NCBI GenBank assembly: GCA_020848545.1
Contig: JADLHZ010000047.1
Coordinates: forward strand, 32,420 to 96,419
Direction: 5' to 3'
Source of the DNA: Deltaproteobacteria bacterium
GTDB taxonomy: Bacteria; Myxococcota; JADLHZ01
DNA length: 64,000 bases
The translations under genes and the position numbers were made by a program. Position 1 is the stretch's first letter, and every line of letters begins with the position of its first letter. Positions 6,897 through 8,592 of this stretch are shown in pieces. The notes beneath the pieces were generated by a model that was not told the DNA's origin, searched no databases, and was given only the letters and a program-made list of their open reading frames with translations.

Positions 6897-8147
6897 ATGC
6901 CGCTCACGGACTACTTGCTGCTCGCCGAGCTCGGCCGCGGCAAAGACGGCCGCGTGCTGAAAGCGATGGGCCCGCGCGGAGTCGTCGCTCTGAAGCTGCC
7001 GCATGGCGACGCGCGGGCGCACTACCGGCACGCGCTCGAAGCCGACTGGTACGAGGCGCTCGCCGGCTGCGACGCCATCCCGGGGCTCATCGAGCGCGGC
7101 GCCCCGAGCGAACCATTCCTCGCGCTACGCTACGCGGCCGGTGGCTCGCTCGTGCGCGCGCGCGTGGGGGACGCCGACCGCGTGGTCGATCGTGTTCGTG
7201 CGTGCTCGGCGGCGTTGCACGCGCGCGGCGTGTACCTGCCGACGCTCGGACCCGATGACGTGCTCCTCGACGACAAGGGCGACGTGCGGCTCTGCGACCT
7301 CGCGGCGGCCGTTCCGCTGACGCCGCTCGCACGCCACGAGCTCGAACCTCTGGCGCCGGCGCTCCGCGGCCGCGGGTGGACCTTCGATCCGCTGCGCGGC
7401 CCCGACGTGGACTTACCGTACGCGCTGCTTCGCCTCGGCTTGCGGGATCGTGCGCGCATGCCGATGGCGCGGCGTCCGGGCGCGTTCTTGCGTGGCGAGG
7501 TCGACGTGCCGGAGCTCGCCGCCGGGGCCGATGTTCACCGCGTCACGTGGGACACGCCAGCGCTCGATGTCACGGCGCTGCTCACGCCCGGCGTGCACTC
7601 AGCGACCGCGAGCGTCGATCTCGCCGCCGCCCTCGCCGCCCAAATCCGCGGCCGCTGCTTCGTCCTCCGGCTGCCGCGCGCCTACACGGACGCGTGGTTC
7701 CTTCCGGTCCTCTTCGAGCAGATCCGCGTCAAAGCCCGCATGCTGCCGGACGCCACCCTGCGCACGCTGCTCCCGCCCTCCCTCGACCCGCTCCTCGCCG
7801 TCCATCACGCCGCCCTCGCCCGCCGCCTCGGCGCCGAAAAGGGACCGGGGAGCGCCGCGAAAAGGGACCGGGGAGAAGGGACACCGGAAAAGGGACCGGG
7901 GAGTATCGCGCCGGGGAGTATCGCGCCGGGGAGTATCGCGCCGGGGAGTATCGCGCCGGGGAGCGACGCGGAGGCGATCGGCGCCATCGCCGCGATCGCG
8001 CCGTGCACGATCGTGCGCCTGGTGCCGCGCGGGCTGGTCGTGGCCCGGCCGCCGGCGGTCGACGGCGTGTGCTGGATCGATGTGACCGAGGCCGACGCGC
8101 TCTTGCATCCGAGCGGCGTCGTGGCGGGGGCTATTTCTTCCCTGTGA
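6897..8147 (+). CDS. Atypical protein-kinase-like protein (paralogue family 1 of 3) with an in-frame tandem-repeat insert
   Basis: Gly-loop-like LGRGKDGRVL, VVALKLP (VAIK-like lysine), DD...VRLCDL catalytic/DFG-like region. ATG 2 nt after the TfoX stop. Shares the ALKVP/ALKLP signature with 12420..13805 and 16624..18048. Confidence 0.55.
   Translation: MPLTDYLLLAELGRGKDGRVLKAMGPRGVVALKLPHGDARAHYRHALEADWYEALAGCDAIPGLIERGAPSEPFLALRYAAGGSLVRARVGDADRVVDRVRACSAALHARGVYLPTLGPDDVLLDDKGDVRLCDLAAAVPLTPLARHELEPLAPALRGRGWTFDPLRGPDVDLPYALLRLGLRDRARMPMARRPGAFLRGEVDVPELAAGADVHRVTWDTPALDVTALLTPGVHSATASVDLAAALAAQIRGRCFVLRLPRAYTDAWFLPVLFEQIRVKARMLPDATLRTLLPPSLDPLLAVHHAALARRLGAEKGPGSAAKRDRGEGTPEKGPGSIAPGSIAPGSIAPGSIAPGSDAEAIGAIAAIAPCTIVRLVPRGLVVARPPAVDGVCWIDVTEADALLHPSGVVAGAISSL
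7836..7975. repeat. In-frame tandem repeats inside the kinase-like CDS: 3 copies of gaaaagggaccgggg followed by 4 perfect copies of the 15-bp unit gagtatcgcgccggg (encoding PGSIA x4)
   Basis: Read directly in the sequence at 7836-7901 and 7901-7960. Confidence 0.85.
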
Positions 8148-8592
8148 TCTTCGCGCCCTTGACGGCGAGGGCGCGCGCGCGCTTGCCGGCGGGGTGCGCG
8201 TTCTTCGGATCGAGCTCGATCGCTTTCTTCAGCAAATCGGCCGCTTCCTGCATGCGCCCGCGGTTCATCAAGAGCTCGGCGAGGTTCGCGAGCACGTAGA
8301 GATCGTTCGGCGCCTTGGCGAGCGCCGCCACGTAGCAACGGATCGCGTCTTCCGGCCGGTTGCTTCGCTGGTACGCCGACGCGAGCCGCGCCTGATGCTC
8401 GCCGAGATCGAAGCCGAGCGCGGCGAGCCCTTCGTAGATCTTGATCGCCGCGCCGTCGTTTTCGGCCTCGTGATGCTTCGCGGCGACCGCGGCGAGGCCC
8501 TTCATGTCCTTCTCGGTCACGCCCACGGCAGACGCGAGCGAAGAAGATCCCTTCGCCCAGGCCTTCAACTTTGCGTCGAGCTCGTTCGCCAC
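8131..8592 (-). CDS. TPR protein of the SycD/LcrH-like class II T3SS chaperone type (153 aa, 3 TPRs)
   Basis: Size and TPR register match SycD (L..L...A......G.YE.A...F..L...D.....LGLA...Q.....AI..Y..A.......P.......AEC.L..G...EA). GTG start. Convergent with the kinase-like gene, 17-bp overlap. Confidence 0.55.
   Translation of the reverse strand: MANELDAKLKAWAKGSSSLASAVGVTEKDMKGLAAVAAKHHEAENDGAAIKIYEGLAALGFDLGEHQARLASAYQRSNRPEDAIRCYVAALAKAPNDLYVLANLAELLMNRGRMQEAADLLKKAIELDPKNAHPAGKRARALAVKGAKITGKK

Follow-up and report, generated by a model that had tools for sequence, protein, structure and literature searches.

The 64-kb window analysed here (64,000 nucleotides, positions 32,420 to 96,419 of contig JADLHZ010000047.1 from the Deltaproteobacteria bacterium assembly GCA_020848545.1; 66.6% G+C) contains two islands, at approximately 6.9–12.4 kb and 48.5–55.8 kb, in which genes for small tetratricopeptide repeat (TPR) proteins accompany genes for large proteins (Table 1). 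One of the pairs, TPR2 and L580, resembles the chaperone and major translocator of type III secretion systems (T3SSs). The genes of the window were mapped by the G+C content of their third codon positions (GC3), and nearly all of them were annotated. The first-pass annotation had described four small TPR open reading frames (ORFs), and all four were confirmed. They encode proteins of 153–176 residues, which do not contain hydrophobic segments according to hydropathy analysis, have coding-type GC3 values of 0.79–0.87, and all match Pfam TPR models. The start of TPR2 in the NCBI annotation is that of the same 176-residue protein, and the ATG codon of TPR3 at position 50877 is preceded, 8 nucleotides upstream, by the ribosome-binding site AGGGGG, a good Shine-Dalgarno sequence. 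The neighbouring large proteins, of 834, 580, 470, and 811 residues, lack an N-terminal hydrophobic signal peptide in hydropathy analysis, as had been proposed, and their N-termini are rich in proline, alanine, and threonine. L580 is 100% identical to the NCBI entry IT381_13775, which is annotated as a hypothetical protein.

Table 1 Genes of the two islands (coordinates within the window)
Feature	Position	Strand	Length	Description
TPR1	8131-8592	-	153 aa	Small protein with three TPRs; may be the chaperone of L834, class II assignment equivocal
TPR2	50278-50808	-	176 aa	Candidate remote SycD/LcrH-type (class II) chaperone
TPR3	50877-51341	+	154 aa	Small protein with three TPRs; putatively the dedicated L470 chaperone
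TPR4	52827-53309	+	160 aa	Small protein with three TPRs; putative L811 chaperone
L834	9848-12352	-	834 aa	Member of the hydrophilic family; paralogue of L811
L580	48539-50281	-	580 aa	Regarded as remote SctE-type; two hydrophobic hairpins, long coiled coils, no signal peptide
L470	51338-52750	+	470 aa	Hydrophilic; short member of the family that it forms with L811 and L834
L811	53306-55741	-	811 aa	Member of the hydrophilic family; conserved C-terminal helix
k416	6897-8147	+		Kinase-like, without HRD and DFG motifs; flanks TPR1; possible accessory gene, membership uncertain
Sulfatase-like gene	8650-9837	+		Weak sulfatase matches, GC3 0.79; separates TPR1 from L834; counted outside the system

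Each TPR gene had been expected to lie next to or near the gene of a large protein. TPR2 and L580, TPR3 and L470, and TPR4 and L811 indeed overlap by 4 bp, but TPR1 is not adjacent to L834. The overlaps differ in kind. The stop codons of TPR2 and TPR3 overlap with the start codons of L580 and L470, respectively, and the two genes of each pair are on one strand. TPR4 is located 3' of L470, and the genes of TPR4 and L811 converge and overlap at their 3' ends. TPR2 is the only one of the four that is positioned directly 5' of, and co-oriented with, an sctE-like gene; TPR3 precedes L470, which is not SctE-like, and TPR4 and TPR1 are not located upstream of their partners. The sequences of TPR3 and TPR4 are 48% identical, those of TPR1 and TPR4 32%, and those of TPR1 and TPR2 27%.

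The LcrH_SycD model of NCBIfam (TIGR02552), which represents the class II chaperones of T3SSs, is 136 positions long and has a curated cutoff of 104.8 bits. Its alignment with each of the four TPR proteins covers nearly the whole model; for example, residues 16–144 of TPR1 align to model positions 4–132. The model is ranked first for TPR2 (72.4 bits) and TPR1 (44.2 bits), second for TPR4 (34.9 bits), and third for TPR3 (20.3 bits). The best natural full-length matches of TPR2 in the PDB are PcrH (E-value 3.3e-6), SycD, AcrH, and IpgC; for calibration, the genuine chaperone AcrH finds IpgC at 2e-9 and SicA at 2e-12. When TPR2 was compared with 72,556 annotated plasmids by tblastn, all 24 matches were annotated SycD/LcrH-family chaperones. 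The plasmid matches of TPR1 that have an annotated feature are all generic TPR proteins, the 20 listed of the 90 matches of TPR4 are all generic TPR or cyclase-linked proteins, and TPR3 had no match among these plasmids.

Reference hidden Markov models (HMMs) were built from five and from ten genuine chaperones encoded by the annotated plasmids, and best-domain scores were compared. Genuine members scored 108–196 bits in leave-one-out tests, TPR2 59–66 bits, and the TPR2 orthologue from the related contig L001 46–54 bits. The score of TPR1 was 32–34 bits over residues 3–97, including the N-terminal helices; that of TPR4 was 21–22 bits, marginally above natural generic TPR proteins; and that of TPR3 was 6–8 bits. 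In the controls, an idealised consensus TPR sequence reached 29–33 bits, natural generic TPR proteins 2.5–18 bits, and YscY 8 bits. The four proteins are therefore not equally similar to SycD, as the first-pass annotation had implied. The SycD register that it saw in all four is reflected in the near-full-length alignments to TIGR02552, but with the controls considered only TPR2 is specific. TPR2 is class II-like, specifically though remotely.

The product of the gene following TPR2, L580, has the architecture of SctE, the major translocator: there is no Sec signal, and an N-terminal region is followed by a coiled coil, two hydrophobic regions (residues ~339–412 and 440–501 in the hydropathy profile), and a C-terminal helix. 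The AlphaFold2 (AF2) model of L580 is all-helical with a disordered N-terminus (predicted local distance difference test score, pLDDT, of 66). Among 1.84 billion representative proteins, searched exhaustively with an HMM, approximately 20 were identified as full-length members of the L580 family. A pattern scan of 185,579 species-representative genomes, including those of many T3SS-bearing species, found none, and scans of genome contigs and metagenomes for the L580 and TPR2 families detected no relatives. L580 has no NCBIfam match and no meaningful tblastn match to plasmids, and the Pfam SseC model (PF04888) matches it with an E-value of 0.058.

An alignment of 19 members of the L580 family was compared with ten genuine SctE sequences using hhalign. 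When only four SctE of the YopB/SseC type were used, the probability was 64% and the match was limited to one transmembrane helix; the signal emerged only after references of the IpaB/SipB type had been added. The probability of the match to IpaB-type sequences increased from 79% with three sequences to 92% with five (E-value 6e-7), with residues 270–368 of L580 aligned to residues 254–334 of IpaB. The match to YopB-type sequences (87%) spans the second hydrophobic region and the C-terminal helix. The comparison with all ten SctE provided a probability of 96.3%, an E-value of 1.5e-9, and a score of 82 over 271 collinear columns. The reversed family alignment scored 45, and 16 shuffles of 25-column blocks scored 28.7 on average (standard deviation 3.7, maximum 36.3). 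Therefore, the collinear match is well beyond what coiled-coil and transmembrane composition produce. Based on this profile match, the architecture, and the location of its gene immediately behind that of a class II-like chaperone, we regard L580 as a remote SctE-type protein.

The chaperone-binding motif [PV]xLxxP is located at residues 50–87 in eight of the ten SctE and six of the eight SctB reference sequences. At the equivalent position (residues 77–90 of L580), 12 of the 19 L580-family members share the sequence (K/R)PFxxYxLPxS(E/D), around which the N-terminus is otherwise poorly conserved. This sequence may be the binding or targeting motif of the L580 family. L470 and L811 have the sequence LPPLSxVG in common.

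L470, L811, and L834 constitute a new protein family; neither they nor their relatives have a match in Pfam or NCBIfam. The N-terminal 216 residues of L470 are 30% identical to L811, and the C-terminal 58 residues of L811 and L834, which form a helix, are 36% identical. According to hydropathy analysis, L470 contains one modest hydrophobic segment (residues 158–176), and L811 and L834 contain none. Near-full-length orthologues of L834 are P0070 (40% identity) and P0071 (37%). The AF2 model of L470, with a pLDDT of 40, was unusable. The pair of TPR1 and L834 looks like a diverged duplicate of TPR4 and L811. Approximately eight pentapeptide repeats rich in alanine, aspartate, and lysine (AADAK/AATDAQ) are encoded at ~53500–53640, directly before the conserved C-terminal helix of L811. 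By eye, the C-termini of L811 and L834 appeared similar to needle proteins or EspA. Nothing in profile searches against the PDB or Pfam substantiated this, and two weak matches in the terminal register are kept as a lead: that of the L834-like protein L24_417 from contig L024 to NCBIfam TIGR02105 (E-value 0.061), and that of the C-terminal helix to Burkholderia SctF in hhalign (E-value 0.01, probability 4%, 32% identity over 34 columns).

The pairings of small TPR proteins with large proteins recur in related loci. The only close homologue of L580, P0002 (45% identity), is encoded on the NCBI contig L001, which carries the same cassette. There, TPR178 (53% identical to TPR2) precedes a 590-residue protein, TPR205 (49% identical to TPR3) precedes the 476-residue L1_476 (32% identical to L470 over its full length), and the L811-like L1_1183, of 1183 residues, is followed directly downstream on the same strand by TPR140 (40% identical to TPR4). 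The pairs TPR2–L580, TPR3–L470, and TPR4–L811 are thus all conserved, with identities of 28–53%. The JGI metagenome contig L024 (60.5% G+C) surrounds a distant member of the L580 family (25% identity). In one orientation, it encodes the 417-residue L24_417, 51.5% identical to L834 over the C-terminal 66 residues; a kinase-like protein without HRD and DFG motifs; TPR177; a 558-residue coiled-coil protein; TPR178, TPR163, and TPR169, the last of which is 37% identical to TPR2; a 626-residue L580-like protein; a 317-residue protein with a single hydrophobic segment; and a hydrophilic 334-residue protein. The order of the last four genes mirrors that of ipgC-ipaB-ipaC-ipaD. TIGR02552 is the top NCBIfam match of all four L024 TPR proteins (66, 53, 88, and 70 bits), and both they and TPR2 have secondary matches to SicA, SscA, and SscB models. 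Contig L023 has a TPR2-like gene after an L580-like gene. The orthologous pairs in L001 and the cluster of four TPR genes in L024 agree with the proposal of the first-pass annotation that there is one small TPR gene for each large signal-less protein. An HMM of genuine class II chaperones ranks the cassette TPR proteins at the top of 1,129 ORFs, and because of this ranking and the recurrence of the pairing in L001 and L024, the layout is not a chance co-occurrence.

The region 6119–9915 of L024, in which three of the four small TPR genes are in tandem, shows the multi-chaperone arrangement most clearly and would suit experiments better as a starting point than the window. No relatedness of k416 to the kinase-like protein of L024 (L24_343k, 5045–6076) was detectable by BLAST. 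Contigs L001, L003, L004, and L007 are separate contigs of assembly GCA_034680565.1, which therefore contains at least four L580-family genes, one of the four with TPR neighbours. The contig numbers of this assembly exceed 55,000, which indicates either a large paralogous expansion or a mixed assembly, and we do not conclude that multi-copy paralogues occur in one genome.

Based on the conserved pairings, the class II preference of TPR2, and the similarity of L580 to SctE, an interpretation can be proposed, in which we have moderate confidence. The islands would encode translocon-like substrates with several chaperones, as a module of a type III or type III-like system, the apparatus of which is encoded elsewhere in the genome of this uncultured Myxococcota-like bacterium. 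TPR2 would be a divergent class II chaperone produced by translational coupling with L580. Before export, the N-terminal region of L580 may be held in the groove formed by the TPRs of TPR2, probably through the (K/R)PFxxYxLPxS(E/D) motif, which would keep the hydrophobic hairpins of L580 soluble. After export, L580 could insert into the target membrane. TPR3, TPR4, and TPR1 would be lineage-specific small TPR chaperones, each serving one of L470, L811, and L834, which may be co-exported partners with tip-, filament-, or adaptor-like roles, or effectors. Because apparatus genes are present neither in the window nor in the related loci, we can only infer the link to type III secretion.

Several results weigh against this interpretation, some of which concern the TPR proteins. 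None of the four reaches the curated cutoff of TIGR02552. The PDB matches of TPR1, TPR3, and TPR4 are only OGT, PEX5, and designed TPR proteins. The distance between TPR1 and L834 is 1.25 kb, with a gene on the opposite strand in between. Scoring against class II models had been suggested as a way to tell chaperones from generic TPR proteins. TPR2 stands up to it as class II-like, but TPR1 appears equivocal, since its score equals that of the idealised consensus TPR; the class II likeness of TPR4 seems marginal, and TPR3 is a generic TPR protein as judged from its sequence. TPR1, TPR3, and TPR4, and possibly also TPR2, could be ordinary small adaptors in signalling or in the cell envelope, with the likeness to SycD resulting from the usual cross-matching among TPRs; their location next to large proteins would then say nothing about chaperoning. 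The score of the consensus sequence, as high as that of TPR1, the generic character of the PDB and listed plasmid matches of the three proteins, and the kinase or kinase-like genes that flank both islands and are also present inside L024 agree with such a role. However, natural generic TPR proteins score low per domain on the class II HMMs, the plasmid matches of TPR2 are without exception T3SS chaperones, and SycD/LcrH is the top model for every TPR protein of L024. Furthermore, the pairing is conserved in three lineages at 25–53% identity and is translationally coupled through 4-bp overlaps. Because the pairings are conserved and coupled, we consider the adaptor role very unlikely. We find it just as improbable that the four proteins are all genuine class II chaperones belonging to a single injectisome, with one translocator for each. 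The full-length alignments to TIGR02552 and the four L024 proteins with SycD/LcrH as their top model speak for this stricter possibility, but the HMM scores of TPR3 and TPR4 are far below those of genuine members, and, of the four partners, three are hydrophilic proteins with no relationship to known translocators.

Other unfavourable results concern the large proteins. All scores of the L580 family with curated SctE models are below threshold; the weak matches to Pfam SseC were found in 3 of 19 family members, the best of which (E-value 8.4e-5) is below the gathering score. No match was obtained when the L580 family was aligned by hhalign to two SseC-type SctE alone, and fold searches with L580 were uninformative. 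The [PV]xLxxP motif was not found in L580, L470, L811, or L834. In hhalign comparisons of the hydrophilic family with SctB (IpaC and YopD types), SctA (IpaD and LcrV types), EspA-like, SseD-like, and SctE proteins, all probabilities were below 1% and no better than those of reversed controls. The TPR2–L580 pair is, at the level of sequence, a very divergent relative of the known families, below the curated cutoffs and without the canonical binding motif.

Finally, sct apparatus genes were found neither in the 64-kb window, which also lacks identifiable secretion-apparatus genes of any other type, nor in the seven related loci L001, L003, L004, L007, L023, L024, and L025. L580-family genes stand alone, without TPR neighbours, in L003, L004, L007, and L025. 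These results raise the serious, if somewhat unlikely, alternative that the islands encode a module independent of type III secretion, in which a chaperone and pore-former pair derived from a T3SS translocon has been exapted to work without an injectisome. The TPR proteins would keep the L580 family and its hydrophilic partners soluble. For example, the L580-family proteins could be chaperoned membrane-inserting toxins or membrane-remodelling proteins that are released through a Tad/Kil-like pilus, in vesicles, or by lysis, or they could have a role in the cell's own envelope. In addition to the missing apparatus genes, exaptation is favoured by the unrelated housekeeping and regulatory genes that adjoin the stand-alone L580-family genes, by the replacement of the canonical chaperone-binding motif, and by the result of the pattern scan, in which the L580 family did not occur in any species-representative genome. 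However, to our knowledge, no class II-type chaperone or SctE-type protein is known outside T3SSs, and the gene order of L024 mimics a full translocon operon. Distance from the apparatus is not unusual either: the T3SS loci of chlamydiae are scattered, and operons for substrates and chaperones away from the apparatus genes are normal there (PMC3459982). A translocon-like module that belongs to an apparatus encoded elsewhere is the most economical reading.

The surroundings of the islands fit a Myxococcota-like organism, as indicated by an AgmX/PglI myxo_SS_tail domain (62.9 bits, cutoff 40) in the protein encoded at 18064–18960, together with Ser/Thr kinases and a PEGA domain. Housekeeping genes between and around the islands encode DUF444/YeaH, SpoVR, PrkA, MltG, RuvX, PhaR, a class II aldolase, two microcompartment vertex proteins, aspartate kinase, FolE, IscS, IscA, a GH5 cellulase, and an M32 carboxypeptidase. 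An intact Ser/Thr kinase with the PEGA domain (46368–47771) flanks the 48.5–55.8-kb island. On the side of the other island, k416 has weak matches to Lan-kinase-domain models and contains a tandem repeat of four GSIAP pentapeptides; it is likely a pseudokinase. Paralogous, highly charged 168-residue proteins with 29% identity and no family match are encoded at one edge of each island (6003–6509, plus strand, and 45845–46351, minus strand); the start of the former gene overlaps with the stop of SpoVR, so this gene may be part of the PrkA/YeaH/SpoVR module instead of the cassette. A 656-residue leucine-rich-repeat protein without a signal peptide (13805–15775, minus strand), encoded 1.5 kb from L834, has weak matches to the repeat regions of the type III effectors XopL and XopAE and is a possible effector candidate. 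Beside L811, the region 55881–60742 (minus strand) encodes a 997-residue secreted protein, with a signal peptide, a CSLREA N-terminal domain, choice-of-anchor Q, and DUF11, and a 623-residue delta-60-repeat protein. A MYXO-CTERM sorting signal was not detected in the 997-residue protein. A DUF1565/beta-helix protein (1–2199) also flanks the cassette of L001, and the cassette may thus have a conserved neighbour in a large secreted protein of the beta-helix type.

The two EutN/CcmL-type vertex genes (28556–28849 and 28867–29124, both minus strand) adjoin the class II aldolase gene (27215–27946, plus strand), and no shell hexamer gene was identified near them. One of two distant Methyltransf_28-like genes located approximately 13 kb apart (29140–30600 and 43098–44447, both minus strand), the former, is positioned directly upstream of the vertex genes in the same reading frame. 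The M32 (Taq-type) carboxypeptidase domain comprises residues 543–1034 of a 1038-residue ORF (39536–42652, minus strand), the ~540-residue N-terminal extension of which has no family match.

Myxobacterial T3SSs are regarded as the earliest-branching non-flagellar T3SSs and are described as having no needle, secretin, translocon, or known substrates, although prey lysis requires them (PMC3459982, PMC10433427, PMC12075869). A divergent SycD/LcrH–SctE pair with additional TPR chaperones and new partners provides concrete, testable candidates for export by these systems, and the pair bears on the timing of the origin of the translocon in T3SS evolution. If the module works without a T3SS, it would illustrate the exaptation of a translocon pair for a different purpose. 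Whichever reading holds, both the L580 family and the L470/L811/L834 family are rare and lack annotation.

The 'needleless' T3SS* cluster of Myxococcus xanthus (mxan_2434-2464) is reported to contain several homologues of LcrH-type chaperones (PMC10433427), a likeness to the genome studied here, which is Myxococcota-like and encodes several TPR proteins. T3SS* has been described as lacking a needle, secretin, and translocon, with no known effectors (PMC10433427, PMC12075869, PMC3459982). We speculate that the cassettes supply the missing exported parts of such a needleless or atypical myxobacterial-type T3SS, with L580 as a highly divergent SctE pore-former and with L470, L811, and L834, the conserved C-terminal helix of which has a weak likeness to the C-terminus of needle subunits, as a tip-, filament-, or adaptor-like structure, each protein with its own TPR chaperone; we regard this as unlikely. 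If true, it would mean that a translocon exists in a lineage thought to be without one, and it would provide candidate substrates for predation-linked type III secretion. M. xanthus itself probably does not have the L580 family, as indicated by the pattern scan of the species-representative genomes.

In the class II systems SycD/LcrH–YopB/YopD, AcrH–AopB/AopD, IpgC–IpaB/IpaC, and SicA–SipB/SipC, one chaperone serves both translocators and is encoded inside or beside the apparatus locus, whereas three to four TPR genes are present here with no apparatus nearby. The [PV]xLxxP motif of those systems is not present here, and the hydrophilic partners have no relationship to SctB or SctA. Similarities are seen in the TPR2–L580 pair. 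In the same class II systems, the gene of a three-TPR chaperone abuts or overlaps that of a major translocator of ~400–640 residues, as TPR2 does L580, and the abutting chaperone-sctE layout is found in ten reference operons. Furthermore, the translocators have two hydrophobic regions and coiled coils, like L580.

Translocons with more than one chaperone include those of SPI-2 (Salmonella pathogenicity island 2; SscA with SseC, SseA with SseB and SseD), of the LEE (locus of enterocyte effacement; CesD, CesD2, and CesAB), and of chlamydiae (Scc2 and Scc3 with CopB and CopD, and with CopB2 and CopD2). Only some of the chaperones of SPI-2 and the LEE are TPR proteins, SseA and CesAB not being among them, whereas in the cassettes a TPR protein accompanies each partner, and the family of the partners is a new one. 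The resemblance to SPI-2 and chlamydial systems that the first-pass annotation had pointed out is limited in that three of the partners have no match in any known family of translocator, tip, or filament proteins, but it is reasonable in view of the TPR2–L580 pair, which is remotely SycD/LcrH- and SctE-like. The likeness to the SPI-2, LEE, and chlamydial systems consists in the provision of several dedicated chaperones for translocon and filament proteins.

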